From an uncultured Dehalococcoidia bacterium (lineage in GTDB: Bacteria > Chloroflexota > Dehalococcoidia > Lucifugimonadales > UBA3495), in NCBI GenBank assembly GCA_958296385.1, contig OY282494.1, positions 1,709,537 through 1,773,536 of the forward strand: a DNA stretch of 64,000 nucleotides. The letters run 5' to 3'. How positions within the stretch are numbered: the first letter of the stretch is position 1; every line of letters starts with the position of its first letter. A model generated the notes under the pieces. The model had not been told where the DNA came from and did no database searches. It saw nothing but the letters and a program-made list of their open reading frames with translations. Shown one piece after another: positions 19,262 to 63,958 of the stretch. The position numbers were made by a program, and so were the translations under genes.

Positions 19262-19273
19262 GGAGGCCAACAA

Positions 19274-22319: not shown

Positions 22320-22333
22320 TAGAGTAACGCGCC

Positions 22334-23179: not shown

Positions 23180-23326
23180 GTCGCCGCTGGGAAACCTCCG
23201 GAGTATTAATTAAAGGCGGCGGCGTCATCCTCAGATAAGTCGCGATTGCTCTGAACCGGGGGCGATGTGTCGTGACAATGGGGGGGTTTGGTGCTATGCT
23301 GTGGCGCGGGAGCGGGTGTTCAGATT

Positions 23327-23767: not shown

Positions 23768-23804
23768 GGGCGCATACTCTGGGGCTACGCTGCTGCTGCG
23801 CTTT

Positions 23805-23833
23805 CGAGATTCTTCGCTGCGCTCAGAATGACA
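23805..23833. repeat. Half copy (right arm) of the GTCATTCTGAGCG REP-like element
   Basis: CGAGATTCTTCGCTGCGCTCAGAATGACA. Confidence 0.5.
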
Positions 23834-23847
23834 TTAGGGATGAGGCG

Positions 23848-38669: not shown

Positions 38670-38802
38670 AACGCTACCGCCCCGGGGCCGGGCCGCCCGG
38701 CGCCCCAAACAACAAGTGGGGAGAGGCCATAGCCAGCCTGCTCCCTGAGCCGTGATTATAAAACCAACGGCAGATATTGTAAAGCGAAACGCAATCGCTG
38801 GC

Positions 38803-39352
38803 CGCGTTCCGTTTCCGGTGGTTTGGTCAAGTCATGATGGGTCATCCTTTGGGAGTGGGTTTGGGGTTGGCTGGTATCGGGCGGGTATCGTATCGGGCAG
38901 TCGGTATCGGGTGGTCGGTTCGGTTTGATTTGGTGTTGGTTGGTTTGGTGGTTATCGTCGGAGATTCCAGTCGGTGTCAGCCCTTACGGCCGGAAGGTTT
39001 TTACGCAACTATTACGGACCTTCATTTTACGTGTCCTGCCCTTTGGGGGAGCAGCGCGCGGGCTGAAGCTCGATACCCTGCGGAGTACCGCCCACGCCGT
39101 GGATGCGTCGATGGGTCGGCCTGGCCGATTGCGGTTTGGATGCTGACGGGGGTGGCCGTGGTGACTGGAAGCTCCGGCGACGTTTGACGCGGTGTTGTGA
39201 TAGTGTGTAGGCCCCGGTTCCTCAGGGGATGCTCTCGGACTGAGAACGGCTGAGGCGGGGATTGGTTGTTGATTTGCCCGATAGATGTATCTTACACGAA
39301 CCGATGTACGGTTACAAGGGGTCGGCGTCGCTGATTTTTTGGATTTGGCGGG
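38803..39352 (+). ncRNA. Candidate structured RNA or repeat element, copy A (inverted paralogue at 63458..63958)
   Basis: Non-coding gap. Exact blocks are shared with copy B (27-nt GGACCTTCATTTTACGTGTCCTGCCCT and 29-nt CGCGGGCTGAAGCTCGATACCCTGCGGAG). A 16-bp closing helix pairs 38957-38972 with 39163-39178 and shows a compensatory change between copies. Confidence 0.45.
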
Positions 39353-39371
39353 TGTCGTTCCGTCGTCCGGT

Positions 39372-39396
39372 GTCATTCTGAGGGCGCTATTTCTCG
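39372..39396. repeat. Partial left arm of the GTCATTCTGAG REP-like element
   Basis: GTCATTCTGAGGGCGCTATTTCTCG. Confidence 0.4.
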
Positions 39397-39492
39397 CCGT
39401 ATCTTGCTGTTACCGGCCTTATCGCGGGGGCGGCGGTTTGCGTACAATTGGGGGCGTGAAATCCGGGCCAGGTCTTGAAAGGAGGATGGGTG

Positions 39493-40038
39493 ATGCTGCG
39501 ACGGATGATTGGGGCGGCGACGTTTAACGCTGCGACTTACGAGGAGATTGAGGCCGACCAGGGGGCGCTGGGGCAGGCGGTGATGGTGGTGCTGATTGTT
39601 ACCCTGTGCGGGGCAATCGGCGGCGTCCTGTCGGAGCTGTTCGGCGAAGAAGCATCCCTGCTGGGCATCGTCTGGGGTTTGATTGTCGGGCTGACGTTCG
39701 GCATCGTGCGCTGGGCGCTGTGGACGAGCGTCCTCTACCTGGTGGGCGGGCGGATGCTGCGCACGAGCGGAACCGAAACCAGCTGGGCCGAACTGGGCCG
39801 GATGCTGGGGTTTGCCTACACGCCGGGCGTGCTGTCCGTATTCGCCTTTGTTCCGTCCGTGGGCTGGCTGTTCGGCCTGGTGGGGTTCATCTGGACGCTG
39901 GTGGCGGTGATTGTAGCCGTGCGCCAGGCGCTGGATTTTGAGTCAACGGGACGGGCCGTGCTGGTAACGTTCATCGCCGCAATCGTTGGCTTTATACCCT
40001 TGCTGATAGTTTTGGCGCTGGGCGAGTTGATCAGTTGA
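39493..40038 (+). CDS. Yip1-family integral membrane protein
   Basis: GGAGG RBS lies 7 nt before ATG 39493. MLRRMIGAATFNAATYEEIEADQGALGQA... is followed by 5 TM helices. Confidence 0.7.
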   Translation: MLRRMIGAATFNAATYEEIEADQGALGQAVMVVLIVTLCGAIGGVLSELFGEEASLLGIVWGLIVGLTFGIVRWALWTSVLYLVGGRMLRTSGTETSWAELGRMLGFAYTPGVLSVFAFVPSVGWLFGLVGFIWTLVAVIVAVRQALDFESTGRAVLVTFIAAIVGFIPLLIVLALGELIS

Positions 40039-40110
40039 TCCGGGGATAAGCCCGCTGGCGCAAAGCAACGCCGGATGCCCGGCATTGGGCTGGACTGAAC
40101 ACCTCCTTTG

Positions 40111-40206
40111 GTCGTTCTGAGCACAGCGAAAAATCTCGATGGCGTAGAGCAAAGTTTGCGGTAAAGGCCGTCATTACGCCGTCGAGATTCTTTGCTATTG
40201 TCAGAC
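40111..40206. repeat. REP/MITE-like palindromic element (diverged copy)
   Basis: GTCGTTCTGAGCACAGCGAAAAATCTCG ... CGAGATTCTTTGCTATTGTCAGAC. Confidence 0.65.
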
Positions 40207-40300
40207 CGTATCCGGTTGCAATCGGCATTATCGCAGCGGTAGGGACTCGCGTACGATAGCGGCGAGAATCCGGGCCAGGTTTTCAAAAGAGAATGGTGTG

Positions 40301-40951
40301 ATGCTGCGCAGGATGATTGGGGCGGCGACGCTTAACGCTGCGACTTACAAGGAGATTAAGGCCGACCAGGGGGCGCGGTGGCAGGCCATTACGGTGGTGC
40401 TGATTGTTACCCTGTGTGGGTCAATCGGCAGCCTGCTGGAGCTACAGCTCAGTGGACCCATCCCGGCCGGGCCGGTCGGGGTGCTAGATGCACTGCTGTG
40501 GCTGGTGCTCTGGGGAGCATTCCAGCTGGACACCCTCACGGTTTTGCTTATCGCGCTAGTGGTCGGCACCGTGCAATGGGCGATGTGGACTACCGTCCTC
40601 TACCTGGTAGGCGGCCGGATGCTGCGCACCGGCGAAACCAAAACCAGCTGGGCCGAACTGTGGCGGATGCTAGGGTTTGCGCACACGCCGCACGTGCTGT
40701 CCATATTCACGTTTATCCCAGCCGCGTTTATCCCGTCCGCCGGCTGGCTGTCCGTCGGCTGGCTGTTCGGCCTGGCGGTGTTCATCTGGATGCTGGCGGC
40801 GGTGATAGTTGCAGTGCGTCAGGCACTGTATCCTGAGTCAACGGGACGGGTGGCGCTGGTAATGTTCATCGCGGCAATCATTGGCTTTATCCCCTGGCTG
40901 ATACTTCTGACGCTGGGAATTGTGGTGGGCGTCATCGTGCTGGGGGGCTAA
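40301..40951 (+). CDS. Yip1-family integral membrane protein (tandem paralogue)
   Basis: MLRRMIGAATLNAATYKEIKADQGARWQA.... The 35 nt upstream are also conserved with the first copy. Confidence 0.7.
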   Translation: MLRRMIGAATLNAATYKEIKADQGARWQAITVVLIVTLCGSIGSLLELQLSGPIPAGPVGVLDALLWLVLWGAFQLDTLTVLLIALVVGTVQWAMWTTVLYLVGGRMLRTGETKTSWAELWRMLGFAHTPHVLSIFTFIPAAFIPSAGWLSVGWLFGLAVFIWMLAAVIVAVRQALYPESTGRVALVMFIAAIIGFIPWLILLTLGIVVGVIVLGG

Positions 40952-41120
40952 TCCAGCTGACGCAACGCCGGATGCCCGGCATGGGGCCGGATTGAACGCG
41001 GGGCTGTGCCGGGGTGGTTTGGGCTGGACTGGACTAGGCGCCGCCGGGTGTATCTGCTGGGCCGCTGGCGTTGGCGTTGTTGGGGCGGCGTTCCAGCAGC
41101 TCAATCAGGCCAGCGTTTGC

Positions 41121-44100
41121 TTAGTTTTGCAGAATCCGTTTCAGGTAATCGTAATTGCCGATGCCTTCCCGGAACAGGATGTGCTTGTCCGCGAAGTCGT
41201 CTTTGCTCCATTCGCCGTTGCCGTAGCGTTCTCTCAGCTGTTCGTAGGGGGTTGTTGACACGATGTAGGAATCCAGACTTACTTGCGTGTTGCCCGAACG
41301 GGCGGCGATTTGCTGTGCTAAACCGGGCAGTTCCTCGTGGAGTTTGGCTTTATCGTCGTGCTCGTAGGCTTTCGCGTTGAGCATTCCGTGCGGTTCTACA
41401 AACACTATGCGTTGTGTATCGCCGGTCTTAATCCAAAGGATGAAATCGGGGTAGAAGCCGCTGCTTTCGAAAAAGCCTACGCCTTTGCCACGGGTCAGGT
41501 TCCGGAGCAGGAACAGTTCGGCGTTGGGCGGCAGGCTGCTGGGCGTTCCTTTGCAGTAGTTTCGCAGGTCGGCGACGAATTCGCGCTCGCTTGGCTGCAA
41601 GCCGGGGGGTGATGAGGTTATTCCATCGGATTCGACGAGGAGCGGTTGGTACAGGTGCCGGTCGAAGTGAATCCGCGGCAAGACGCCTTGTTCCTGACGG
41701 TAGAGGGCGTTGCAGTCTTTGATTAGTTCCGCAATTTCATTTGCCAGAGTTGTGTTGCCCCGGGGGGCTTTGACGATGTATTTTCCGGTGGCGTCGCCTT
41801 CGCCGATGTTGAATCGTAGGTTGGGGTCGGCGGCATCGAGTTGCCGGTAGGTGAGGTGGTTTGATTCCCACTGCGCTTGCCGGCGCCGGTACAGCGATTC
41901 GGCGTACTTCCGGAGGATGCCGGTGACGACTTCCTGCAAACGCTGCCGGTCAGCATGGTTCTGCGGCTCAATTACCGACTGTTCGGCCTCCACATGGTAC
42001 GCCGGCGGCTGTGATTCCAGTATGGGCCGCAGCAAGTCCGGCTGTATCAGGAGATTGCTGAAGCCCTTACTTTCCTTGTGTTCCAGCAACTCCAGGTAGG
42101 CTTGTCCCCAGTCAATCAAGTCCAGGCTGGCCGGCGGTATTGACCCGCTCCAGGATACGGCGCTGGCGCTGTCAATTCCCTGCTGGCCGCTGACGATTTG
42201 CTGGGCCTGCGCCGACACGGTTACGGAAACCGGCCGGGCGTCGCCGTCGTATTGCAGCAGCACGGTTTCTTGCCCGGCAAAGCTCTGTCCGTCGTCCAGG
42301 CGTGGGATTACCAATCCCTTATCCAGGAAATCCTGATTGGGGCGTATGAACAGCGGCAGCTCGATGGGTTCCTGGGTGTCTATGCCCTCGTTTTCCAGGT
42401 ACTCCCGGAATTGGGCCATGTAGTTGGCGCGCAGGGCAAAAATGTTCAGGGTTTCCAGCGACCGGATGTGATCGGGATGCCGCTCGCCGGCCAGCGCTGC
42501 GCTGCGTTTCAGCGACAGACCCCGGCCTTTCAGGCGGACGCCGCGTCCGAACAGCTGGATTATCTGCGCGCCTTCGCTTTTCCCGATGTTCAGCAGGCCC
42601 ATGTTAGACACCCGCCAGGAGTTCCAGCCTTCAATGAACTTGCGGGAACCGGCCAGCACTTCAACCGTTGAGTCCGGTTCGTTGATGCGGTCAAACAGCG
42701 AACCTTGCAGGGCGTCGTCCGTTACCACGATGCCGGAGTCGTCGGCCTCGACCAGCCGCTTGAACGCCGCAGTGTCGCCGACGTAAATTACGCCGAAGTA
42801 GTTCTCGGCGCCGGCCGCTTTCAGGCCCAGCTCGCCGTCGCTGCCGCGCAAGTCGGAAAGCTCCAGGCCGCCGCTGCCGTCGGCGTGCAGCGTTTTCCGC
42901 AGGGCGTTCCGGTAGATTGGCCCGGCGTCCCCGCCACGCTGCTGCAAGTAGATGAATTTGTCGGCAAAAATGTCGCGGCCATCCTCTGTAATTAAGCCGG
43001 ATTGACCATTCAGCAGCCGCGCAATGCTGTCCTCTGCCCAATCGGGTTCGCGCAGCACCCGGTGCAGAAACCTGGCTACGGTCAGGATGTCGCTGCGCCG
43101 GTTATTCCCTTGCCCGTACACGGCGTTGACTCTGCCCCCGACGAATGTCCACAGCGGCCGTTCCAGGTTGTATGGCCGCAGCGCCGGTTTCTGGTCGTCA
43201 AACACGAGCTGCTGTTCGTAGAAGGACAGCAGGTTGGCCAGCAGCAGGATGTCGGTCTGCTCTGCGCCGCCTTCCTGCTGCAAGTTGAGGATGCTGAAGT
43301 CTTTGCCGTAGCCGTCAGCGTAGAAGTGCCGGTAGGAATAGTCAAAAGCGATGGCTTTGCCGTACTCGGTGAGCAAGTCGTTGTTGCCGGCGGCGGCCAG
43401 GGCCTGCCCAAAAGTGGCGCTGTACTCAAAGGTAAAGCCCGTCTCCCCCAGCGCCTTGCGTATCTCCAGCCAGCTTTGCGTTTCGGAACTGGCTCCCCGG
43501 TGGCCTTCGTCCACGAATATCAGGTTGTTGCCTTCGAATGATTCCACCGGCACGCTTTCGCCTTCGCCCTGCTTCTCCATTACCAGCTTGGTAATCTCGG
43601 TTACCCGCACCGTTCCGGTGTCGCCGGGCAGCCCGCCGGTTTCGTTGAGGTCAAAGCGGGCCGCCGGGATGCCGGACGCTTGCAGCTCGGCGATGTGCTG
43701 CCGGGTCAGCCCTTCGTTGGGCGTAATCAGCAGGATGTTGTCCAGCGGCTGCCGATTGTAGTGCCGGAACTGCCGGTAGTGCAGATGCAGCAGCAGCGTT
43801 TTGCCGCTGCCCGTCGCCATCCAGAACGCCAGCTTGTTCAAGTCGCCGGCGGCGAAATCCTTATAGCGCTGGTCGGGGGCGCAGTTGGCGTTGTGCTGCG
43901 CGACGAATCGGTTGAGTGAACCCAGCAGGCCCGCGGTGCTTTTGCTGTAACGGTCAAGGTAGATTTCGGTGTACAGCGCGGCCAGGTATTGGAAGTAGCG
44001 CAGGATGATGGGTTCGACCCGGCCGGCGTTCAGCGCCGCCAGATGGGTGCGGATGTTGTCGTCGTAGCGTTGCAGGTCATCCGTGGTGACCCCCACCAGC

Positions 44101-44315
44101 TGGCCGGCCCGCGCGGCCAGGAGAGCGTAGATGTGGCTGCGTCCGTTCGGGTCAAAGCCTTCGTCGGTCGGCTTGACGGCGGCCAGCAGGTCGGACGTCT
44201 TGGCGTAGCCCAGCTGCCCGTGCAGCCAGGCCAGCAGCGCCAGCCTTTGCTCCAGCCGGGCATAGCCGCGCGGGGCCGGCGGGCGGTTTCCGTTAGCGCG
44301 GCGTCGGGGCGGCAT
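41121..44315 (-). CDS. Type III-like restriction subunit (SF2 helicase/ResIII + C-terminal PD-(D/E)xK-like nuclease)
   Basis: MATGSGKTLL (Walker A), FVDEGHRG (DExH), later helicase motifs, and C-terminal GFYPDFILWIK...IVFVEPHG. Confidence 0.8.
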   Translation of the reverse strand: MPPRRRANGNRPPAPRGYARLEQRLALLAWLHGQLGYAKTSDLLAAVKPTDEGFDPNGRSHIYALLAARAGQLVGVTTDDLQRYDDNIRTHLAALNAGRVEPIILRYFQYLAALYTEIYLDRYSKSTAGLLGSLNRFVAQHNANCAPDQRYKDFAAGDLNKLAFWMATGSGKTLLLHLHYRQFRHYNRQPLDNILLITPNEGLTRQHIAELQASGIPAARFDLNETGGLPGDTGTVRVTEITKLVMEKQGEGESVPVESFEGNNLIFVDEGHRGASSETQSWLEIRKALGETGFTFEYSATFGQALAAAGNNDLLTEYGKAIAFDYSYRHFYADGYGKDFSILNLQQEGGAEQTDILLLANLLSFYEQQLVFDDQKPALRPYNLERPLWTFVGGRVNAVYGQGNNRRSDILTVARFLHRVLREPDWAEDSIARLLNGQSGLITEDGRDIFADKFIYLQQRGGDAGPIYRNALRKTLHADGSGGLELSDLRGSDGELGLKAAGAENYFGVIYVGDTAAFKRLVEADDSGIVVTDDALQGSLFDRINEPDSTVEVLAGSRKFIEGWNSWRVSNMGLLNIGKSEGAQIIQLFGRGVRLKGRGLSLKRSAALAGERHPDHIRSLETLNIFALRANYMAQFREYLENEGIDTQEPIELPLFIRPNQDFLDKGLVIPRLDDGQSFAGQETVLLQYDGDARPVSVTVSAQAQQIVSGQQGIDSASAVSWSGSIPPASLDLIDWGQAYLELLEHKESKGFSNLLIQPDLLRPILESQPPAYHVEAEQSVIEPQNHADRQRLQEVVTGILRKYAESLYRRRQAQWESNHLTYRQLDAADPNLRFNIGEGDATGKYIVKAPRGNTTLANEIAELIKDCNALYRQEQGVLPRIHFDRHLYQPLLVESDGITSSPPGLQPSEREFVADLRNYCKGTPSSLPPNAELFLLRNLTRGKGVGFFESSGFYPDFILWIKTGDTQRIVFVEPHGMLNAKAYEHDDKAKLHEELPGLAQQIAARSGNTQVSLDSYIVSTTPYEQLRERYGNGEWSKDDFADKHILFREGIGNYDYLKRILQN

Positions 44316-44357
44316 CGTCCATTCCTCCGGTCAATAATCCGGCGGTAAGCAATCCGG

Positions 44358-47300
44358 TCAGGCGCTTACGCCGGCGAACATCCGCGCCTTGAACATCGGC
44401 TCGATGGGCTTGGCCCGGGGGATGATGATGGCGGAATCGCCGTTGACGTACACCGTTTCGGCGCCGGCGGCCATATCCTGCGCGGCGATAAACTCACGGT
44501 CCCGGACGAAATCATGCTCCGCCCAGCCGTCGGTGGCGCGCCAGATTACGGCCACCGTGCGGCCCGGTTCGGCGCGGGTTTCGCCGCTGTACGCCAGATA
44601 ACGGCGCCCGTCGTCAGCGTAGGCCCGCCGGGTGCGGACGTTCAGCCCCAGCAGATAGTTGAACGTCTCCGGCAGGTCAACCGTGCGTTCCTGCCGTTCC
44701 CCGTTGACATGGACGCGCAATCGGTAGGTGAAAGGGGCGGTCAGCCCGGTGACGTTGAGCAGTGTTTCGCTTTCTCTAGTCTCCGAGCGCAGCAGATATT
44801 TGAGCAGGTATTCGTCGGATGATTCCAGCAGGGGCAGCTGCCCGGCCGGCGAATCAAACTCAATACTGTCCAGCGCATCCTCGTAGGATTCCAGCGTCAT
44901 ATACTTGATGATGCGGGGCGAGCGTTCCGATTCCTCCGGCGTGGCCGCGCGCCGGGGTTTGCCGTCTTTCCATTCGGGCGTAAAGACGACCTTTTTGATG
45001 CGGGGCAGCAGCACCGTATCAAAGTATTCGCCCATTTCCACCAGGACAAACTTGCGCCGCCCGCCATCCTCACGGTTCAGATTGATAACGGCGTGGCCCG
45101 TAGTGCCGGAACCGGCGAAGTAGTCAAGGACAACGGCATCATCGTATTTGTGGATGCAAGCATCTACACAATCGCGCACTGTCCAAACAGATTTGGGATA
45201 AGAGAACGTACTTCCGCCGCCGAAAAGTGCCCTGAGCAAATTACTCCCGTGTGTACCGGCGTTATATTTCTTATCCGTCCAATTGCTGAACAGAGGGCGC
45301 CGCTTACCGGATTGGTCTGTGAGCAGGTAAAGAGAGCGGCTGTTTTTACAGATGATCTCGCCATTCTCGATACACTTCGTTACTGTTACATAGCTCCGGC
45401 GCCATACCCTTTCAGTGCCGTCATCACTGACTGGATAAATACGGACATACCCTTCAGATGTTTTACATCGCGGGTAATCCGTACCTGTTGGAGGCGGTTC
45501 TGCTCCTATAACCGTAGATGTTTTCGGATCTACAAGAACCGCGTAAAAACTGTTCGGACGTCCAGTACGTAAGTTGCTGTCTGCTGTACCTGTACGAACG
45601 AATCCTATTTCGGATATGCCAGATTCCTTTTGTGGGCCGCCCAGAACTTTTGCGTTGGCTGGCGTCATAAAAATGGCATATTCGTGAGTGCTGGACACGT
45701 TTGTACCTTCCAATCCGCTACCAGCTGGATGGTGATTGACGACCACCATACTCCTGTCCCAAGCGTTGAAATGGGTATCGAGGATTTGGGCTAGACCTGT
45801 CATTTCAGTGTCGTCAATGGCAATCACCCATGCCGCATCGTCGCTTATAACAGATTGCGAGATCGAGATACGATCTGCAATCAAAGATAGGTATGACGAA
45901 TGTTTGTAACCATTCTTATAAAGAATTTCTGACGCTGCTGTATTGTACGGCGGGTCAATGTAGATACAATTGACCTTTCCGGCGTATTTTTCTGTTATCA
46001 GCCGCAACGCTTGCCAGTTGTCACCGTGGAACAACACACCGTCGGTCATTCCGTCCAAGTCGTCAAAGGCGGCCAGCAGGCGGTTGGTAAAGGCGGCGTT
46101 GAAGTGGCGGGTGTCCAGAGGGAGGGTGGGATGGGTTTGCAGGAAGTTGGCGGTGCGGTGGGCGGCGTCAGTGTCAATGTCAAACAGCTCCCGCCATTCG
46201 TGCCACTGCGCGGCGTTGGCGATGATGTCGGGGTAGAAGTCGGCGCTGATGTTGCCCAGGGTGATGCAGTAGTGCGTTGCGGTGACGAACTTGCGCTTTT
46301 CCCAGAGGGTTTTCTGGAAATCCTCAATCTGGGCCAGGAAGTCGATGACTTGCCCGCCGACGGCCTTAATCAGGCGCATTTGCTGGAACCAGCCTTCCGC
46401 AGCCTCCTGGCCGGCGTTGGCGATGTTGTCCAGGTTCAGCACCTCGTTCTTAAGGTAAAAGTCCAGCTCCTGGTTGAGAAACCCGGACAGGTCTTTGTGG
46501 ACAAAGAAGTCGGCGTTGTTGCGGGTGGTATAGCGGCGCAAGTGGTGTTCCAGCCGGCTCACCGGCTCGCCTTTGGCGTTCTGCCGGTGGGCGCCGGCGA
46601 GGGCGATATGAGCGTCCGGCGCGCCGGCCAGCTTCGGCGGGATGGCGGCCACGGCGTCGGCGATAATCTTGTCCTGCTGATTGCGGGTACCGTAATTCTG
46701 CTGTTCGTCGGCCCGCAGCGGGCGGTACTCAACGGGAATAGTGACGGTGCGCGCGTCGTCATCCCACCGGACATCGGCGACAACGGGCAGAAAAAAGCGC
46801 CGGTCGCCCTTAACGTTGTTCTGCTCAACGTCGGCATTCCTGAGGCGGAAGCGCACCGCTACGCCATTAGGGGCCTGCCAGTCATAGTTGCGGAAGTGTT
46901 CATCAGTCTTGACGTAATACTGGTCGCGGTTGGCCCAATGGAGATAGACTTCCTCGCCGTTATAAGGAATGGCGTAGCGCCGGCTGCGGGAGTAGCGCCG
47001 CTTGGAAATAAAGTCGCCCTCCTCGTAGTAGCGGCTGAAAAACGTAATCAGGTGATTATAGATGGCGTCCTCAACCGAGGCGCGGTTGCGGTCATCGGCA
47101 GCGCGGGCCAGCGCGTCGATATATTGCTTAACCAGAGGGGCGTCCATATTGCCGATTTGCGAGACGACCAATTGCCCGTCAAAGCCAACGGCGTCCTCTC
47201 CGTAAGCCTGCTCCACCCTGGCCCGCAAATCCGCCAGCGCGACATCAGCCCGGACTTGCTGCGCCAGCGGCCCCCGGCTCAGCGCATCGGCAACGGCAGC

Positions 47301-47465
47301 CGGCAAGCGCTCCGTGATAAACCGCTCAACAGCAGCCCGCTTGTGGTTCATAATGCGGTAAATGCCAAAATCCAAATCGGCGCAGTCGAACTGAAAGAGC
47401 TCGCGCAACAGGGACTGGAACTTCTCGGCGCTGCTGGCATCAATGGCGCTAATCGCGCTGGTCAT
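44358..47465 (-). CDS. Large beta-class N6/N4 DNA methyltransferase (Type III Mod-like)
   Basis: IYIDPPYNT (motif IV) lies upstream of DYFAGSGTTGHAV (motif I). There is a ~500-aa N-terminal extension (ELFQFDCADLDFGIYRIMN...). The start is set at MTSAIS (47465). Confidence 0.85.
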   Translation of the reverse strand: MTSAISAIDASSAEKFQSLLRELFQFDCADLDFGIYRIMNHKRAAVERFITERLPAAVADALSRGPLAQQVRADVALADLRARVEQAYGEDAVGFDGQLVVSQIGNMDAPLVKQYIDALARAADDRNRASVEDAIYNHLITFFSRYYEEGDFISKRRYSRSRRYAIPYNGEEVYLHWANRDQYYVKTDEHFRNYDWQAPNGVAVRFRLRNADVEQNNVKGDRRFFLPVVADVRWDDDARTVTIPVEYRPLRADEQQNYGTRNQQDKIIADAVAAIPPKLAGAPDAHIALAGAHRQNAKGEPVSRLEHHLRRYTTRNNADFFVHKDLSGFLNQELDFYLKNEVLNLDNIANAGQEAAEGWFQQMRLIKAVGGQVIDFLAQIEDFQKTLWEKRKFVTATHYCITLGNISADFYPDIIANAAQWHEWRELFDIDTDAAHRTANFLQTHPTLPLDTRHFNAAFTNRLLAAFDDLDGMTDGVLFHGDNWQALRLITEKYAGKVNCIYIDPPYNTAASEILYKNGYKHSSYLSLIADRISISQSVISDDAAWVIAIDDTEMTGLAQILDTHFNAWDRSMVVVNHHPAGSGLEGTNVSSTHEYAIFMTPANAKVLGGPQKESGISEIGFVRTGTADSNLRTGRPNSFYAVLVDPKTSTVIGAEPPPTGTDYPRCKTSEGYVRIYPVSDDGTERVWRRSYVTVTKCIENGEIICKNSRSLYLLTDQSGKRRPLFSNWTDKKYNAGTHGSNLLRALFGGGSTFSYPKSVWTVRDCVDACIHKYDDAVVLDYFAGSGTTGHAVINLNREDGGRRKFVLVEMGEYFDTVLLPRIKKVVFTPEWKDGKPRRAATPEESERSPRIIKYMTLESYEDALDSIEFDSPAGQLPLLESSDEYLLKYLLRSETRESETLLNVTGLTAPFTYRLRVHVNGERQERTVDLPETFNYLLGLNVRTRRAYADDGRRYLAYSGETRAEPGRTVAVIWRATDGWAEHDFVRDREFIAAQDMAAGAETVYVNGDSAIIIPRAKPIEPMFKARMFAGVSA

Positions 47466-47639
47466 AGTGCTACCCCAGGCGGCGGCCATCGGCCCCGCAA
47501 TTTTGGCTACAGGGCAGATTATAACGACACCGGGCAGCCCCGTCCCGCTGCCAGCGTCACCAAAACCCCCACTTTTGGCAGCAGCCGGCGACTGATTTAC
47601 TCAGGCACACGACATATAGTGATATATGCCGACGGCCGG

Positions 47640-48893
47640 TCATGATGCTTGCCCCGTCACTTTCCGGAACAGCGCCAGGTAAGCAGCCACCGCCCGCTGC
47701 TCCGAGAACTCGCCGGCTCTGCGGCGCAGCGCCTCCGCCGGGGGATGGTCGCCTTGCAGCGTCTCCACCATTGCTTGCGCCAGGGCCGGCGCATCGCCCA
47801 CCGGCGCCAGCTTGCCCCACCTGTCATCGGCAAGTATCTCGCGGGGGCCATAAGGCGTGTCGGTGCTGACGGCGGGCGTGCCGCAGGCCAGGGCTTCCAG
47901 CAGGGCCGTCGGTAGCCCCTCCCAACGGGATGAGAACGCAAACAACCCCGCCCGGCGCATATAGCGAAAGGGATTCGCGTCAAAATCCACGAACCCCAAA
48001 TCATCCGCCACGCCGTACTCCCGCGCCCGTTCAATCAGCCCGGCCCGGTAAGATTCCGAAAGCCGGCCCATTATGACCAACCGCGCCCTGATTTGACGGC
48101 GCGCCAGCCCGAACGCCTCCACCAGCGTAGCATAGTCCTTTGGCGGCGCCTCTCGCCCCACGCTCAGGACGACCGGCGGTTCGCCGGCGGCAAACCAGGG
48201 GTGCCCCACGTCCTCTTGCGCCTGCCGCCAGATCGCATCGGACGGTATGGGATTGTAGATAGCATAAACGCTTTCCCCCGGCACGCCCAAAAACCCCTCC
48301 ACCTCCCGGCCGGCGCCCTCGGAAACGGCAGCCACCGCATCGGCCCGGGGGTAGATGTCCCGGGCCCGGCGTTGTTCATATTCGGTGTAGTTCCGGCTGA
48401 CGTTGCTGTGCACTGACGCAATCACCGGCCGGCCAAATCCCGCCAACTCCATCCCATCGACGGCGGCAAAGTTGGCCCGCGACACGCCGGCCAGCAGCAG
48501 CGCTGGGCGTTCCTGCCGGACGTAACGGGCCACCAGATGGGCAAACACGGCATCCTTAATATCGGCGTTAATCCCGCGCCTGCGCCGCCGCAAGGCCAGC
48601 CAGTCCCAGGCCATTGACATCGGGTTGATGGCCAGCGCCTGCATCGCAACGCCCCGCTCCCGGCAGCGGCGGATTAGCTCCCGGTCCGATTTACGCAGGC
48701 CGGGGTAAAACAGCCGCATCCCCGCCGGCAGGCTGTCCGGGTACGCTATCAGCAACCGCCCCACCATCATATCCACCCGGTGGCCCCGCCGGATGAGCGA
48801 CTCGGCCAGCGTGATGGCCACCCGCTGCGCCCCGCCGCCGCCTAAACTATGCAGCACAAACCCCACGTGCAGTTTGCCCCCCGCCGCCGTCAT
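47640..48893 (-). CDS. GT4-family (GT-B) glycosyltransferase
   Basis: HVGFVLHSLGGGGAQRV..., ...SSRWEGLPTALLEALACGTPAVSTD (EX7E region). Only the last 417 aa of the 843-aa track ORF are real. ATGA overlap with the upstream gene. Confidence 0.85.
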   Translation of the reverse strand: MTAAGGKLHVGFVLHSLGGGGAQRVAITLAESLIRRGHRVDMMVGRLLIAYPDSLPAGMRLFYPGLRKSDRELIRRCRERGVAMQALAINPMSMAWDWLALRRRRRGINADIKDAVFAHLVARYVRQERPALLLAGVSRANFAAVDGMELAGFGRPVIASVHSNVSRNYTEYEQRRARDIYPRADAVAAVSEGAGREVEGFLGVPGESVYAIYNPIPSDAIWRQAQEDVGHPWFAAGEPPVVLSVGREAPPKDYATLVEAFGLARRQIRARLVIMGRLSESYRAGLIERAREYGVADDLGFVDFDANPFRYMRRAGLFAFSSRWEGLPTALLEALACGTPAVSTDTPYGPREILADDRWGKLAPVGDAPALAQAMVETLQGDHPPAEALRRRAGEFSEQRAVAAYLALFRKVTGQAS

Positions 48894-50236
48894 TCCGCCG
48901 CCTCCCGACTGGCAACCCGACGCTGGCCCCTCTGCCGAAGTATCGCTATCACGAACGGTATCAGCACCACGACAAAGGCGATGAAGTAGGCCGTGTTGGC
49001 CCAGGCCGCGCCCGCCGCGCCGTACCGGGGCGCCAGCCACACGATGATTGCAACCGATGCTACCAGCCCGGCCGCCGTCCCCGCCAGCGACGGCCCGATG
49101 CGCCCCGCCGCCGCCGGCAGTATGGTCAGCACCGAAACGCTGCTGGCGGCGAATGAGCCAATCAGCATAATCAGCACCAGCGGGGCGGCGTTCCCGAATT
49201 CCGGGCCCAAAATCAGCCGCGTTATCGGCTGGTGAAATATAAGCAGCATCCCGAATCCCACCACGGACAGCGCGAACGACACCAGGGCAAACCGCAGCGA
49301 CGCCCGGCGCAAGGCCCGGCCCGCCCCCGCGTACCAATGCCGGCTGTACTCCGGCTGCACCGCGCTCATCAGCGGCTGGAACGGGTAGCGCGTGGAGTCC
49401 GTAATCTGCCGCCCCCCCCGGTACAGGCCCACGTCGGCGGCGCCGGCGAATTGCGCCAGCAGGATGGCGTCCATATTGTGGGCCAACGTCCAGATGGTGG
49501 ATTTCCCGAACGTTCCAACCTGGAATCGCAGCACGTCCGGCGGCACTTTCAGCGACAGCGAGCGCAGCAGGCCCGTCATTCCCGCCTGCGGCGCGGCGAC
49601 CGTCGTGGCAATCAGCATCCCGGCCCCGTTCACGGCGGCGCCGGCGATGTGCGCCAGCACCACCGCCAGCAGCCCGCCCCCGGTCAGCAGCGCCGCCACC
49701 AGCAGCGCAACCCGCGTCAGCACGCCGGCCAGCGTAACCGCAAACCCCAGCGCCACCCGGTCGGACAGCCGCAGCGCCGCCAGCGTTTCCGTCTGCGTCG
49801 CCAGAAATATCCCGATGACGCCGTACAGCAGCGCGGCATCCAGGTAGGCCGGGCCAATCCCCAGCAGCCCGCCGGCCGCCAGGATGAGGACGGCCAAAAT
49901 CGCATAGGCCGCCAGCGCCAGCCCCAGCGACAAGGCCAGCACAAATCGCAGCACCCGCGACGCCTCCTCCGGCCGCCCCTCGGCTACGCCCCGCGTAACG
50001 AAAGCCGTAACCGCCTCGCCCCCCGGTATGGCCGACAGTCCGTAGATTAGCAGCGTGACGGCGACAATCACGGCCAGCACGCCGTAGCCCTCCGGGCCGA
50101 GAATCCGGGCCGATATGGACACCTGCGCCAGCCCGCCCACCAGATGGGCTGCGGTAATGCCGCCCATCCAAAACGTCTGCCGGGCCAAACGCCGGTCCGA
50201 CGCCGGCAGCATCCGGGCAATCAGAGGGTGGTTCAA
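48890..50236 (-). CDS. Polysaccharide/oligosaccharide flippase (Wzx/MOP superfamily)
   Basis: 448 aa with about 12-14 TM helices. Typical Wzx-like topology next to a glycosyltransferase. Confidence 0.7.
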   Translation of the reverse strand: MNHPLIARMLPASDRRLARQTFWMGGITAAHLVGGLAQVSISARILGPEGYGVLAVIVAVTLLIYGLSAIPGGEAVTAFVTRGVAEGRPEEASRVLRFVLALSLGLALAAYAILAVLILAAGGLLGIGPAYLDAALLYGVIGIFLATQTETLAALRLSDRVALGFAVTLAGVLTRVALLVAALLTGGGLLAVVLAHIAGAAVNGAGMLIATTVAAPQAGMTGLLRSLSLKVPPDVLRFQVGTFGKSTIWTLAHNMDAILLAQFAGAADVGLYRGGRQITDSTRYPFQPLMSAVQPEYSRHWYAGAGRALRRASLRFALVSFALSVVGFGMLLIFHQPITRLILGPEFGNAAPLVLIMLIGSFAASSVSVLTILPAAAGRIGPSLAGTAAGLVASVAIIVWLAPRYGAAGAAWANTAYFIAFVVVLIPFVIAILRQRGQRRVASREAAE

Positions 50237-50702: not shown

Positions 50703-50789
50703 TGGTGCCGAGGGAGGGATTCGAACCCACACACCTCTAGGAGGTAGCGGATTTTAAGTCCGCCGCGTCTACCCTTTCGCCACCCCGGC
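50703..50789 (-). tRNA. tRNA-Leu (anticodon TAA), class II with long variable arm, CCA encoded
   Basis: Hand-folded: acceptor GCCGGGG/CCTCGGC, anticodon arm GCGGA-CTTAAAA-TCCGC, T-loop GGTTCGAATCC. Confidence 0.9.
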
Positions 50790-50951
50790 ACGGCGTTAAA
50801 CACAAGCGCGCAACGCTCGTCTGCTCAAAAGCGTCGCGCGGAACTGAAAGCGCATAGTTGGGCCCGGCTTGCTGATACGACCGGCGCAGGACAGGATAGG
50901 ACAGAGCGGGATCGGATGGCATCGTGCACGGGCGCAAAACCTGCTTGATAT

Positions 50952-51027
50952 TGGAGGCGACGGGCGGATTCGAACCGCCGAATAGAGGTTTTGCAGACCT
51001 CCGCCTTAACCACTTGGCTACGTCGCC
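50952..51027 (-). tRNA. tRNA-Cys (anticodon GCA), CCA encoded
   Basis: Acceptor GGCGACG/CGTCGCC, anticodon arm GAGGT-CTGCAAA-ACCTC, T-arm GGCGG-TTCGAAT-CCGCC. Confidence 0.9.
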
Positions 51028-51097
51028 CCGGAGTTGCTTACTCACTGCCGTGCCGGTTTGTTGCCAACTGCCCGCCAACTGCGTTTGTTCGTTCGAT

Positions 51098-51184
51098 TGG
51101 TGCCGAGGGCGGGACTTGAACCCACACGAGCGAAAGCCCACGGCCCCCTCAAGACCGCGTGTCTACCATTTCCACCACCTCGGC
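51098..51184 (-). tRNA. tRNA-Leu (anticodon GAG), class II, CCA encoded
   Basis: Acceptor GCCGAGG/CCTCGGC, anticodon arm CGGTC-TTGAGGG-GGCCG, T-loop GGTTCAAGTCC. Confidence 0.9.
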
Positions 51185-51713: not shown

Positions 51714-51931
51714 TGCGTTTCTCCAATGTCCGGCGGGCCGGAACCCGCGCCAGATGGTGAGCTTGCCGCCATTATAGCACTTTGCCGGGCAATCAACACC
51801 AATGCGCCCCCATTTTACAAAGCTTTTACAACCCAACACCGCAAATGCCGAAACGCCGCCGCCCGTCATTCCGGGCGCCGGCGTTCCGAATAGCGCCGGG
51901 CTGCACGACAGCCGGCAGTTTGCCGGTTCGC

Positions 51932-53839
51932 CTAAACCTCCCGGAACTCCCCCTCCACCGTGTCGTCCGGCCCCGACGCGCCATCGCCGGCCGTCCCGTC
52001 CGCCGTCCCCGGCCCGGCGCCGCCGGCGCCCGGCTGCGTGTACACGGCTTGCCCCACCCGCTGCAAAACGTCGTTCAGCTCGTTCATCGCCGTCTGCATC
52101 TGCGCCAGGTTGTTGGCGGCGATGGCCGTCCGCAGCTCGGCCAGCTTGCCGTCGGCCTCCGCTTTCAGCTCGGCCGGCAGCGTGGCGGCGTGTTCGGTCA
52201 GCAGCCGTTCTGCGGAGTAGGCCAGGCTGTCGGCCTGGTTGCGCGTTTCAATCTCCGCCCGACGCTGCCGGTCCGATTCCTCGTTGGCCTGCGCGTCCGA
52301 CATCATCCGCTCGATGTCGTCCTGCGAAAGGCCGCTGCTGGTCTGTATGACAATTCGCTGCTCTTTGCCCGTGCCTTTGTCCTGCGCCGACACGCTCAGG
52401 ATGCCGTTGGAGTCGATGTCAAACGTAACGTCAATCTGCGGCATCCCCCGGGGCGCCGGCAGGATGCCGTCCAGCATAAACCGGCCAATCGTCTTGTTGT
52501 CGGCCGACATTGGCCGCTCGCCCTGCAAAACGTGGATGTCCACGCTGGCCTGCGAGTCGGCCGCCGTCGTAAAGGTTTCCGTCTTTTTGGTGGGAATGGT
52601 GGTGTTGCGCGGAATGAGCGCCGTAGTGACGCCGCCCAGCGTCTCAATGCCCAGCGTCAGCGGCGTTACGTCCAGCAGCACGATGTCGCCCACCTCGCCG
52701 CCCAGGACGCCGGCCTGTATCGCCGCGCCCAATGCCACCGCCTCATCCGGGTTCACCGAGCGGGACGGCTCCCGCCCAAAGATTTGCTGCACTTTGGCCT
52801 GCACCGCCGGCATCCGCGTCATCCCCCCCACCAGTATCACGTCGTCAATGCTGCCGGAGGCTACGCCGGCATCGGATATGGCCTGACGGCACGGCCCGGC
52901 GGTGCGGTCAATCAGATCGCCCACCAGCTGCTCCAGCCGCGCCCGGCTCAGCGGTTTCACCAGATGCTGCGGGCCGCTGGCGTCCGCCGTGATAAAGGGC
53001 AGGTTAATCTCGCTTTCCAGCGTGCTGGACAGCTCAATCTTGGCCCGTTCGGCCGCGTCGCGCAGCCGTTGCAGCGCCATCCGGTCCTGAATCAGGTCAA
53101 TCCCGGTTTCGGCCCGGTACTCGGCCACCAGCCAGTTCAGGATGGCGTCGTCAAAGTCATCGCCGCCCAGAAAGGTATCGCCGTTGGTGGAAAGCACCTC
53201 AAACACGCCCTCCCCAAGTTGCAGGATGGTAATGTCAAAAGTGCCGCCGCCCAGGTCAAACACCGCAACGGTGGAGTCGGTCTGCTGCTTGTCAATGCCG
53301 TAGGCCAGCGAGGACGCGGTGGGTTCGTTGATGATGCGCAGCACGTCCAGCCCGGCGATGGTGCCGGCGTCTTTGGTGGCCTGCCGCTGCGAGTCGTTGA
53401 AGTAAGCCGGCACCGTAATGACGGCCTGCGTGATGCTCTCCCCCAGCTTGGCCTCAGCGTCCTGCCGGATTTTTTGCAGCACCATACTGGAGATTTGCGG
53501 CGGCGCGTAAGCCTGCCCGGACATCTCCACGTGGGCATCGCCGTTGGCGCCGCCCACCACCTTATAAGGAAGGCGTTGGGCCGCGCCCTGCACCTCAGGG
53601 TCATCAAAACGGCGCCCCATCAGGCGTTTCACGGAGAATATCGTGTTCTCCGGATTGGTAACGGCCTGCCGCTTGGCCGTCTGCCCCACGTAACGCTCGC
53701 CGCTGCGGACGTTCATCGCCACCACCGACGGCGTGATGCGGTTGCCCTCAGCGTTCTCCACAACCTCCGCCTCGCCAGCCTCAATAACCGCAGCCACCGA
53801 GTTGGTAGTGCCGAGATCGATGCCCAGAATCTTTGCCAT
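51932..53839 (-). CDS. dnaK: Molecular chaperone DnaK (Hsp70)
   Basis: [18 protein letters not shown]..., [19 protein letters not shown]. Confidence 0.96.
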
Positions 53840-53930
53840 TGTTGTTTCTCCTAATAAAATCCGTATAAAATCCGTTCTGCGAATCAGTTTAGCAGGAACG
53901 GCACCCCGGCCGGGGATTTACTGTCGGTCG

Positions 53931-54542
53931 TTACTGATTGACGACCACCTGCGCCGCCTGCACCACCCGGTTGTGCAGCCGGTAGCCCTGCCGCAGCACC
54001 TCGATGATGCAGCCGGAATCGGCGCCGCTGTCGTTGGCCATCCCCACCGCCTCGTGCAGCTCCGGGTTAAAAGGTTCGCCCAAAGCTGCGATGCGCGCTA
54101 CGCCCTCACCTTCCAGAAAAGACGTCAGCTTGCGCTGTATCAGACGCACGCCCTCCGTCCACGAATCGTTTGCGCCGTTATCCCCGCCGCCCTGCTCCAG
54201 ATGGGCCACCGCCAAGTCCAGCTCGTCCACGATGGGCAGCAGATGCACCAGCAGCCGGCTGTTCGCCTGCTCCCGGATAGCCAGCCGCTCCTCATCATGC
54301 CGCCGCCGCAGATTGGCCAAATCCGCCTGGCCCCGCTGTACCGCGTCGGCTTGACGGGCGATTTCCTCGTTAGCCTCTGCCAGAGCCGCCCGCAGCAAAG
54401 CCGCCTCAGCCTCCGGCGCCAGCGGCGGCGCGGCCGCGTCCTCGTAGTTTGCGCCGGCCGGGGAATCGGGCGGGATGCTGTCGCCGGCCGGGTTGTCGTG
54501 TTCGGTTGTCAATTGCGAAACTCCATCCTGGGGTATTGTCAT
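53931..54542 (-). CDS. grpE: Nucleotide exchange factor GrpE
   Basis: Coiled-coil region, then ...LLPIVDELDLA..., GEPFNPELHEAV, QGYRLHNRVVQAAQVVV. Confidence 0.9.
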   Translation of the reverse strand: MTIPQDGVSQLTTEHDNPAGDSIPPDSPAGANYEDAAAPPLAPEAEAALLRAALAEANEEIARQADAVQRGQADLANLRRRHDEERLAIREQANSRLLVHLLPIVDELDLAVAHLEQGGGDNGANDSWTEGVRLIQRKLTSFLEGEGVARIAALGEPFNPELHEAVGMANDSGADSGCIIEVLRQGYRLHNRVVQAAQVVVNQ

Positions 54543-54551
54543 TCTGCCTTA

Positions 54552-54599
54552 GGCTACTGTATCGGCTACTGTATCGGCTACCGTACCGGCTACTGTACC
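54552..54599. repeat. 12-bp tandem repeat x4 (GGCTACTGTATC, GGCTACTGTATC, GGCTACCGTACC, GGCTACTGTACC)
   Basis: Read directly from the sequence. It lies between the hspR stop (54590) and the grpE ATG (54542). Confidence 0.8.
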
Positions 54600-55129
54600 G
54601 GCCCCGGCAAACTCAGGCTGCGGCACAGCAGCGCCACTTCCTCCCGGATGCTGGCCGCCAAATCGGGGTCGTCGGTCGAATGGGCCAGCCGACGGGAGAA
54701 CACGCTCAGGTTATTGACCAGGTTCAGCGCAAACTCAACCCCGGCCAGATTCAGTCCCAGATTATCCATCAGATGCCGTATCAGCATAACCTTGTGCAGG
54801 TCGGCCCGCGAGTACAGCCGGAGCATCCCGACGGTGCGCACCGGCTGAATCAGCCCCAGCCGCTCGTACTTGCGCAGCGTTTGCGGGTGCATTTCCAGCA
54901 GCCGGGCCGCTACCGATATGATGTACACCCCCTCCATTTCCGGGCCGGACGCCCCGGCGTCCCGGCGTCCGTCGGCTCTGCTCTCCGCCGCCGGCGGCCC
55001 GGCCGCTGACAGCCCGGCCGGCGCCGGCGTATCGCCGTTCCAATCCTGCGGCGCCGCGAAAGCCGGCTGCGGATAGGGTTCCGCCGGTATGTTCATTGCG
55101 TTGGCCGTTCCGGCCCAGCGCCGCTGCAT
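54590..55129 (-). CDS. hspR: MerR-family heat-shock repressor HspR-like, with a Pro-rich N-terminal extension
   Basis: YIISVAARLLEMHPQTLRKYERLGLIQPVRTVGMLRLYSRADLHKVMLIRHL. ATG 55129 sits behind GGAGAA; the track ORF extends to GTG 55210. Confidence 0.75.
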   Translation of the reverse strand: MQRRWAGTANAMNIPAEPYPQPAFAAPQDWNGDTPAPAGLSAAGPPAAESRADGRRDAGASGPEMEGVYIISVAARLLEMHPQTLRKYERLGLIQPVRTVGMLRLYSRADLHKVMLIRHLMDNLGLNLAGVEFALNLVNNLSVFSRRLAHSTDDPDLAASIREEVALLCRSLSLPGPVQ

Positions 55130-55225
55130 CGTTCTATTCTCCGGGGCAACCGTCTGCGGGGCCGGCATCGTCAGGGCTTGCGGCAGCGTTGCGCCCGTGA
55201 ATTTTATCACATTGGATTAATGGGT

Positions 55226-63384: not shown

Positions 63385-63423
63385 GCCCCCCCGAGGGGGT
63401 CTGGGGGAAATGATTTCCCCCAG
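63385..63423 (+). terminator. Two GC hairpins after clpC (CCCCCC-GA-GGGGG; CTGGGGGAAA-TGA-TTTCCCCCAG)
   Basis: A perfect 10-bp stem at 63401-63423. There is no U-tract, so intrinsic termination is uncertain. Confidence 0.4.
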
Positions 63424-63457
63424 CGTCCCCCCTTACCCCCTAGCGCACACCCTCCCG

Positions 63458-63958
63458 TCAAAATCCCCCGCCAAATCCCAAAAATCAGCGACCCCAACCT
63501 CTTGCAACCGGACATAAGTTCGTGTAACATACATTCATCGGGCATCTCAACCAACCCATCCCCCCTCAGCCGTCCTCGCTCGAGAACATCCCCTGAGGAA
63601 CCGGGGCCAGCACACCGCTAGCACAACCGCCGGAGATTCAAGTCAAAAACGGCCAGTCAGCAAAAAACCGCAATCGGCAAGGGTAGTCCCGACCCCGCTT
63701 TCACGGCGCGGGCTGCCTCCGCAGGGTATCGAGCTTCAGCCCGCGTGCTGCCTCTCATTAGGGCAGGACACGTAAAATGAAGGTCCAAAATAGTTGCGTA
63801 CCAACCTCCGGCCGTAGGGCTGACAACGACTTGAATCTCCGACAACCAAACCAACCAAACCAACCGCCCGATAAACGCCCGATACCAGCCAACCGCAAAC
63901 CCTCTCCCACAGGATGAACGATTATGACTTGACCCAAAACCCCCTGAAACGAAACGCT
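63458..63958 (-). ncRNA. Candidate structured RNA or repeat element, copy B (inverted relative to 38803..39352)
   Basis: The reverse complement aligns along its whole length with copy A. The closing helix pairs 63828-63843 with 63629-63644 (15 Watson-Crick pairs plus one G.U). Confidence 0.45.

Follow-up and report, generated by a model that had tools for sequence, protein, structure and literature searches.

Large orphan structured noncoding RNAs of bacteria, such as HEARO/omega RNA, ROOL, GOLLD and OLE, have been found by comparative genomics; such RNA families are rare, and past ones have proved to act as ribozymes, as scaffolds for proteins or as the guide RNAs that mobile elements use. 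The BOX, BIME/REP, ERIC and Correia elements, for their part, are modular interspersed repeats, and the IS110 family of insertion sequences (IS) has neither terminal inverted repeats nor target duplications. Here we describe an element of ~0.55 kb that occurs twice, as copies A and B, in a 64-kb stretch of contig OY282494.1 from an uncultured Dehalococcoidia bacterium (hereafter the window; G+C content 62%), and that shares features with each of these systems. We put at about even the chance that it represents a dispersed cassette family free of open reading frames (ORFs), with a novel structured RNA core, on a mobile or recombining element. The family is undescribed until now and is restricted to intergenic DNA of SAR202-type Dehalococcoidia (Chloroflexota), which are abundant, uncultured, oceanic and sponge-associated bacteria with an essentially unknown noncoding repertoire.

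Like HEARO, ROOL, GOLLD and OLE, the element is several hundred nucleotides long and ORF-less, with unpaired motifs framed by covarying long-range helices, and it resembles them further in being lineage-restricted and, as they often are, multicopy and associated with mobile DNA. It differs from them in having no Rfam match and no associated protein gene, and in being known here from sequence, in three lineages. With BOX, BIME/REP, ERIC and Correia elements it shares an intergenic, dispersed, strain-variable and ORF-less character, variable tandem subrepeats, a mosaic make-up, and two distal segments that pair into a long stem. Unlike these repeats, it is larger (550 nt, with a core of ~230 nt), its copies are 75–85% identical, its stem sequence is unconserved between lineages while its internal loops are conserved, and no terminal repeats were found. 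Finally, like the bridge RNA of IS110 and the omega/reRNA of IS200/IS605, it is a candidate structured noncoding RNA on mobile DNA without terminal inverted repeats, and unlike them it shows no adjoining recombinase or nuclease gene and no target- or donor-complementary loops that we could identify.

This analysis follows a sequence-only reading of the window, which had recognized in the element none of several known RNA classes, and a search of Rfam bears this out. The whole window yields only two tRNAs against Rfam at the gathering threshold, copies A and B give nothing relevant against Rfam 15 (4227 models) with permissive filters at E ≤ 10, and two remote homologues introduced below give nothing at E ≤ 1. 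The models covered include RNase P, tmRNA, SRP, 6S, riboswitches, group I/II introns, HEARO, ROOL, GOLLD, OLE and IS605-orfB. The literature searched likewise holds no description resembling the element.

A dispersed and strain-variable family

Copy A (38800–39352, plus strand) aligns by blastn with copy B (63961–63467, minus strand) at 75% identity over 561 columns, or at 81% identity with each gap counted once, confirming the earlier claim that the gap between greA and the first Yip1 gene recurs in inverted orientation near 63458..63958; blastn within the 64 kb returns these two copies only. The features described in the earlier reading are all found at the positions it gave for them. The duplication is clearly beyond chance, as is the inverted repeat within it (38955–38972 with 39163–39180; 18 nt, 89% complementary, 190 nt apart). 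The similarity had also been called blocky, and here the signal is modest: the longest exact runs are indeed 29 and 27 nt (P = 0.02 for the second run) and the mismatches are clustered (P = 0.009), but the longest run itself is unexceptional (P = 0.17), and the 27-nt block, although present in A and B, carries two substitutions in B′, the ortholog of copy B in a sister strain (~97.6% nucleotide identity), and so is not invariant. The description of the similarity as not codon-periodic holds, with mismatches falling 22/36/33 by position modulo 3, frame-breaking indels of 1, 5 and 11 nt, and no protein match. A six-frame concatenated protein query of the element found nothing, and when the sense ORF that spans the core was searched exhaustively with HMMER, the sole real match was P0242, an ORF called over a further copy of the element; hence there is no protein homologue, and the element has no coding capacity.

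That further copy, copy C (L104), stems from another sample, is flanked by other sequence, and is 85% identical to B and 74% to A. Two other species hold remote homologues, at loci L011 (E = 1e-3) and L014 (E = 4e-3), both weak matches of a four-copy profile; a covariance model that contains the helices P1 and P2a only (described below) finds L014 at E = 7e-6 and scores the core of copy A at 239.9 bits. In L011 and L014, a CCTCCT-like motif is followed by G/T-rich, lineage-specific tandem repeats, a 5′ helix arm, GTCAGCCCYACGGCCGGRGG (in L011 then TACGCAA), a variable interior of 147–184 nt, TTGCG.TTTGG.TTGCTGAY, within 0–5 nt TGGCCGT, and a 3′ helix arm. The GCTGAY..TGGCCGT block, which recurs with this spacing in all lineages, lies outside the original profile match and at the expected distance, and is thus an independent confirmation of the homology of L011 and L014. 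In all, 2 copies were found in the 64 kb of the window, 1 in 43 kb of the sister strain, and 2–3 in ~1.3 Mb of relatives.

Other candidate members are of lesser standing. A sequence at L044 (21319–21496, minus strand), flagged by the covariance model and truncated where the locus ends, shows a closing helix of 10 bp without mismatch (UCGUCGGUCA/UGACCGGCGA) together with TTGGTACGCAACGATTAT, and is without the GTCAGCCC..ACGGCCGG motif; it is a probable further, more divergent member. Directly downstream of the element in L014 (~6030–5880, minus strand), the leader-like ATGGCATGGATGGAGGGGATG..GGGATTTTGGG recurs, followed by GGAATGACGGTTTAGGGGG repeats, and this may be a tandem, truncated second unit. 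Covariance-model matches in L003, L052, L058 and at a second L011 site lie in coding-like sequence and are hence put down to chance. A scan of the genome collection for an exact 21-mer from the 29-nt block gave 0 matches, and two-anchor scans of the viral collection also gave 0; the one exact-word match in a metagenome (L083) is an AT-rich unrelated genome and due to chance, and viral exact-word matches (L001, L084–L088) have only the word itself in common with the element. BLAST of the element against plasmids and phages gave no match.

Presence of the cassette varies even between close strains. The sister-strain locus L089 (97.6% nucleotide identity) is nearly identical to the window up to 38793 and from 39385, and the segment between, which holds copy A, is replaced there by an unrelated 541-nt sequence with 50% GC. 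Among the loci of 80 relatives, gathered with LysS as anchor, none has the element at the syntenic greA–lysS position; in the closest species that keeps this gene arrangement the gap measures 222 nt, versus 842 nt in the window, and in another lineage the greA–Yip1 gap is either empty or occupied by an IS110-family or IS66-family element. Downstream of clpB, where copy B lies in the window, relatives carry an IS110 element, 1.3 kb of other DNA, or an unrelated 305-nt gap (L100), and in the latter case copy B is missing despite the same clpB/ubiA synteny. Similarly, the TPP/FIST gap that holds the element in L011 measures 640 nt, versus 213–258 nt in relatives. The neighbouring genes are unrelated across loci (Yip1; clpB/ubiA; FIST/TPP-enzyme; GMC-oxidoreductase/cytidylate-kinase-like). 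Dispersal, strain variation and the mosaic make-up described below, which probably mean mobility, had escaped the sequence-only reading. This coming and going between 97.6%-identical strains, together with mosaic evolution, makes the family a tractable marker of recombination at intergenic hotspots.

Compensatory changes in the helices of the core

We propose that the cassette of ~0.55 kb consists of a fast-evolving G/T-rich 5′ tract, a core of ~220–290 nt and a fast-evolving 3′ tail (Table 1). The core would be the functional unit, folding into a rod-like stack of long-range helices P1, P1b, P2a and P3 around the variable interior, with internal loops that would carry the conserved unpaired motifs CCCUACGGCCGGAGG, UGGCCGU and UACGCAA. 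Since MAFFT misplaced the divergent helix arms even with end clamps, helices were defined across lineages by sequence anchors.

The long-range helix proposed earlier between 38957–38972 and 39163–39178 stands, in that the inverted repeat is present and the helix is kept in the remote homologues with arms of unrelated sequence. The closing duplex beats 1000 shuffles in five of five sequences on the plus strand (P ≤ 0.007), with z-scores of -5.75 for copy B, which has a 22-bp closing helix, -4.7 for L011 and -3.5 for L014. Within it, the P1b arms read CCAGTC/GACTGG in copy A and CAAGTC/GACTTG in copy B; those of L014 are CGGTCG/CGACCG, with five of the six pairs changed on both sides relative to B, and those of L011 are GTGGTC/GACGAC or GGTCGT/ACGACC. 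P2a is Watson–Crick at 6/6 positions in all copies, and in L014 it reads ATCAGC/GCTGAT, a compensatory change from G-C to A-U. P3 has 5/6 pairs in A, B and C, 6/6 in L011 (CGCAAG/CTTGCG), and three Watson–Crick plus three G.U pairs in L014 (CGCGTT/GGTGCG). Over P1b, P2a and P3 together, we count 12 compensatory double changes relative to B versus 2 broken pairs. As aligned here, the helices are thus conserved across diverged homologues by compensatory changes, which is the generic mark of a structured RNA.

The individual observations first offered for these helices fared less evenly. The pair C38968-G39167 is indeed A-T in copy B, but this double change is not significant (168 of 500 shuffles do as well), and an additional homologue, copy C, breaks the pair, with an uncompensated A.C at the equivalent position. 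The A.G mismatch at 38964/39171 is A-T in copy B, as had been stated. Of the inner helices, CAGCCC/GGGCTG exists in the window copies but is not conserved, L011 having no partner for it; we rejected it, as the conserved partner of that strand is found in the GTCAGC/GCTGAC pairing of P2a, which covaries in L014. The CTGCC/GGCAG hairpin also exists, but its fifth pair is C.A in copy A. When the three helices named earlier are considered on A, B and B′, they show one double change in all, two of them being invariant, and the covariation term of RNAalifold on these three sequences is positive, that is, a penalty.

Between the helices lie motifs that scarcely change. The single-stranded motif listed in Table 1 hardly varies among A, B, B′, C, L011 and L014, and ACGGCC (38986–38991) may pair with GGCCGT (39154–39159) in a pseudoknot across P2a, both strands of this putative pairing being invariant. 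Conserved unpaired motifs combined with complementary stems of changing sequence are the pattern of a structured RNA, and the opposite of that of transposase-bound terminal repeats.

Consensus folding of the core is more stable than that of column shuffles, with z = -4.6 on the plus strand and -6.1 on the minus strand. The flanks give no such signal against column shuffles (z = +1.0 for the 5′ tract and -0.1 for the 3′ flank), and single-sequence folding z-scores were uninformative. The earlier view of the whole ~550 nt as a conserved structured element therefore has to be given up, as only ~230 nt are structured and constrained, the flanks having no folding signal and diverging at a neutral rate.

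Table 1. Coordinates of the cassette copies and their parts within the window
Feature	Position	Strand	Remarks
Copy A, whole cassette	38794..39352	+	similarity to copy B over 38800-39352; left edge between 38794 and 38800
Copy A, 5′ G/T-rich tract	38803..38954	+	holds TCATCCTTTGGGAG motif and tandem repeats
Copy A, structured core	38955..39180	+	closed by P1/P1b, 38955-38972 with 39163-39180
P2a, 5′ strand GTCAGC	38976..38981	+	pairs with GCTGAC 39142-39147
Single-stranded motif CCyUACGGCCGGrrGG	38982..38999	+	nearly invariant (see text)
P3, 5′ strand CGCAAC	39004..39009	+	pairs with ATTGCG 39128-39133
P2a, 3′ strand and bulge	39142..39159	+	GCTGAC 39142-39147, then conserved TGGCCGT 39153-39159
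Copy A, 3′ flank	39181..39352	+	CCCC..GGGG hairpin, GAAC-loop hairpin, CAAGGGG, T-run; homologous to copies B and C
Junction DNA right of copy A, window-specific	39353..39384	+	contains GTGTCATTCTGAGGGCGC; not in copy B; missing from L089
Copy B	63458..63958	-	begins directly after stop codon of UbiA-family gene; converges on clpB
Copy B, structured core	63627..63845	-	covariance-model alignment, 294.4 bits
Copy B, P1/P1b	63844-63828 with 63644-63628	-	
Copy B, P2a	63824-63819 with 63661-63656	-	TGGCCGT at 63655-63649
GC-rich compound hairpin (CTGGGGGAAATCATTTCCCCCAG and outer stem)	63385..63448	-	3′ end of the B/C-type cassette

Divergence, strand and rival explanations

Divergence between the copies bears on both constraint and descent. 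Over the whole element, B and B′ differ at 17/492 positions (3.5%) plus 5 indels, which is indistinguishable from the fourfold-degenerate sites of clpB and hspR (23/544, 4.2%; p = 0.63) and far above codon positions 1 and 2 (0.4%, p = 3e-7). Within the element, however, the core has 3/217 substitutions (1.4%) and the flanks 14/272 (5.2%; p = 0.026), and the comparison of B with C gives 2.3% for the core versus ~20% for the flanks (p = 1.5e-10). As judged from these counts, constraint is limited to the core, and the flanks evolve at the neutral rate. The copies also form a mosaic: over a central tract (alignment columns ~183–446) B equals C and there are 43 A-specific differences, while in the flanks the three copies are equidistant. 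Core and flanks thus have different histories, which points to recombination among members of a larger family. The tandem repeats of the 5′ tract (in copy A an 11-nt GGCGGGTATCG twice, a 14-nt GTATCGGGCAGTCG 2.5 times, and GGTTT 6.6 times) differ in number between A and B, and comparable lineage-specific repeats are present in L014 and L011.

The folded molecule is most likely an RNA; this, like the strand of origin, the action in trans and the mode of movement given next, is inferred. The RNA would come from the G/U-rich strand (plus for copy A, minus for copy B) and would act in trans, probably as a protein-binding or guide-like scaffold, while the cassette as a whole would behave as a nonautonomous mobile or recombining element that comes, goes and is exchanged for other DNA at intergenic sites where IS elements also insert, with core and flanks reshuffled between family members. 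The choice of strand follows the non-Watson–Crick helix positions, which are mostly G.T on the G/T-rich strand (the A.C of copy C being the exception), so that G.U pairing favors this strand as the transcript, an argument we consider suggestive. The earlier claim that a T38958.G39177 wobble fixes the strand is borne out insofar as the wobble is kept in A and B, but the strand assignment drawn from it is again only suggestive, as the opposite strand folds at least as well. If the proposal is correct, this would be a new structured RNA family of >200 nt with a multihelix framework and a possible pseudoknot. A more specific form of it, in which the core is a new large RNA class and the active part of an ORF-less mobile element, strikes us as improbable though not negligible: a guide-, bridge- or ribozyme-like RNA would then direct its own insertion or exchange at intergenic sites, together with a partner (recombinase, nuclease or reverse transcriptase) whose gene would lie at another site in SAR202 genomes. 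If such a partner protein exists, the element would be a lead to a new RNA–protein mobility or defense system.

Several observations weigh against an RNA-bearing mobile cassette. Relative to B or C, copy A is ~18% diverged in core and flanks alike, which means that long-term constraint falls on the framework and not on most core positions. The helix homology of L011 and L014 rests on anchor rules and not on an unbiased structural alignment, the independent lineages number three, and A, B and C vary little within the framework. L011 has one mismatch in the register with a 3-nt spacer, the A.C of copy C is uncompensated, and a lenient control for P1b alone gives 4–7% per sequence. The opposite strand folds each helix just as well, and when the closing helix is left out only the minus strand is significant (z = -3.0, versus -1.1 for the plus strand). 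Promoter prediction gives nothing sigma-70-like at any copy, and no consistent terminator is predicted either; a conserved one was looked for at the 3′ end and not found. Finally, we identified neither a mobility machinery nor terminal repeats nor target duplications.

The foremost rival, to which we assign a smaller but appreciable chance, is that the element is an interspersed palindromic repeat at the DNA level, of the kind of BIME, BOX or miniature inverted-repeat transposable elements (MITEs). A recombinase or transposase encoded at another locus would then recognize the inverted repeats as DNA, whether duplex, cruciform or single-stranded hairpin, and any RNA structure would be incidental. 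The dispersed, ORF-less and strain-variable occurrence in intergenic gaps where IS110 and IS66 insert as well is as such a repeat would have it, as are the modular, mosaic build with variable tandem repeats known from BOX and BIME, the equal folding of both strands, and the want of a predicted promoter; neighboring gaps in relatives, moreover, hold other units bounded by inverted repeats (L094, L100), and a family of ~110-nt palindromic repeats also exists. However, transposase-driven repeats conserve their terminal inverted repeats, while here the arms differ wholly and it is the internal unpaired motifs that are conserved, as in an RNA or other single-stranded fold. An inverted-repeat search found no terminal pair bounding the 550-nt unit, whose 18-bp repeat is internal, and the element is thus no classical MITE; no direct repeat is shared between the edges of copies A, B and C, and the sister-strain site is a replacement rather than a clean empty site. 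The copies are also 74–85% identical and not near-identical, and the noncanonical positions within the helices are mostly G.T on one strand. Should the element prove to be only a DNA repeat, knowing it would still be useful, since it breaks short-read assemblies and invites spurious gene calls.

It seems doubtful that the element is a transposase-less relic or satellite of a guide-RNA mobile element, that is, that its core is akin to the bridge RNA of IS110/IS1111 or to the omega/reRNA of IscB/TnpB (IS200/IS605), with the protein supplied in trans. IS110 elements do occupy both intergenic sites in relatives, that family has neither terminal repeats nor duplications and none were identified here, and a dispersed, strain-variable unit with a long RNA-like fold, conserved internal loops and a possible pseudoknot would fit such an origin. 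Set against this, no recombinase gene (DEDD/RuvC-like plus Transposase_20) and no iscB or tnpB gene adjoins the element at any of the five loci, IS110 genes being seen only in the gaps of other relatives; the noncoding ends of the IS110 elements in L090, L091 and L098 do not match the element profiles by nhmmer, the HEARO and IS605-orfB models do not match even at E ≤ 10, and we identified no loop that could pair with targets or with the ends of the element. Derivation from IS110 or IS66 was accordingly rejected for want of sequence similarity. A reverse transcriptase was also not seen among the Pfam-assigned genes, which are most but not all of the genes called, around copy A (through L002), B′ and L089, or among the immediate neighbors in L011 and L014.

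Functionless, neutrally decaying duplicated intergenic DNA, or a pseudogene remnant, is very unlikely. The neutral overall divergence of B from B′, the flanks without structure signal, and the A and B cores that are as diverged as their flanks would all suit it, but in homologues from other species the order of motifs and the helices persist even though the arm sequences have turned over completely, substitutions between orthologs are rarer in the core than in the flanks, and no protein homology was found in any frame. A cis-acting leader, riboswitch or untranslated region of Yip1 (copy A) or ubiA (copy B) is hardly tenable: although Yip1 begins 140 nt after copy A and runs in the same direction, ubiA immediately precedes copy B, and a same-orientation gene follows in 4/5 loci, the downstream genes are unrelated (Yip1, FIST, cytidylate-kinase-like, and none for B, which faces the convergent clpB), Yip1 orthologs in the sister strain and in relatives do without the element, and Yip1 has an upstream region of its own that is duplicated before the second Yip1 gene.

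Gene neighborhoods and further observations

Copy A sits between the divergent greA and a tandem pair of Yip1 genes, and a strong greA promoter on the minus strand (TTTACA-17-TATAAT, 38783–38755) abuts its left edge. On its right, GTGTCATTCTGAGGGCGC is a terminal fragment of a ~110-nt palindromic repeat family and matches the repeat consensus TGTCATTCTGAGCGCAGCG. These REP/MITE-like repeats (TGTCATTCTGAGCGCAGCGAAGAATCTCG...CGAGATTCTTCGCTGCGCTCAGAATGACA) occur in the window at 16401–16517, 23772–23847 and 40111–40196, with the fragment at 39369–39386, and at the sister-strain locus L096 at 16431–16541, 18220–18333 and 20564–20671; one copy lies between the two Yip1 genes, and the terminal fragment abuts the right edge of copy A. 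Beside copy B, the UbiA-family gene runs off the window and was identified through L096, and a ClpB sequence identical over 825 aa is present in the protein collection (P0121). The GC-rich hairpin that follows copy B is matched by its profile hp4 in B, B′ and C only and is missing from copy A; the similarity between B and C runs on through it at 63433–63391, so that the hairpin is part of the cassette.

The alternative insert that stands in for copy A in the sister strain (L089, 9365–9905) has an ORF of 105 aa (9473–9790, minus strand) without a Pfam match. In a related lineage, the greA–Yip1 gap (L090–L094, ~8400–10000) and the region downstream of clpB (L098, 8575–9465) are insertion hotspots, where transposases of the IS110 and IS66 families have entered at or next to a ~115-nt palindrome (L094, 9789–9903), with a 2-nt overlap at the IS110 junction; a tRNA gene was considered for the L094 gap, and ARAGORN finds none. 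The 305-nt gap of the long-read locus L100 (6473–6777) is bounded by a long inverted repeat (CCCCTCACCCCAACCCCCCTCTC ... GAGAGGGCTGGGGTGAGGGG) and is another lineage-specific unit of this kind. Three independent short-read contigs (L101, L102, L103) end ~310–360 nt after clpB.

A large rearrangement sets the window apart from the sister strain (~97.6% identity): 24 kb lie between the greA and clpB loci here, versus ~0.9 Mb on the sister contig. We considered copies A and B as inversion breakpoints, being mutually inverted and 24 kb apart, but rejected this, as the rearrangement with respect to the sister strain has its breakpoints close to Yip1b and the tRNA cluster and not at the copies. When the window is compared with the sister strain (14296–41107 with L089 and 52776–64000 with L096), the block 14296–23225 is inverted relative to its neighbors. 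The Yip1a/Yip1b block (39385–41107) is 82% identical to the sister strain, versus 97–98% elsewhere, which suggests an imported or diversifying segment, and the ~85 nt upstream of Yip1a (39397–39480) are duplicated upstream of Yip1b (40206–40287).

Further to the right of copy A, the window holds a type III restriction-modification pair (41121–47489; a Res-like protein of 1064 aa and an N6/N4 methylase of 1043 aa), adjoined by a large glycosyltransferase (47640–50171) and the tRNA cluster (50703–51184). The restriction-modification and glycosyltransferase region is missing from the sister locus and looks like a variable defense island beside copy A. Lastly, an ORF of 690 aa at 51782–53854 (plus strand) matches the Pfam family NAD-GH (PF10712); since the gene on the opposite strand in L096, with which the window aligns from 52776 onward, is HSP70/DnaK, this ORF is probably a spurious antisense reading of dnaK.

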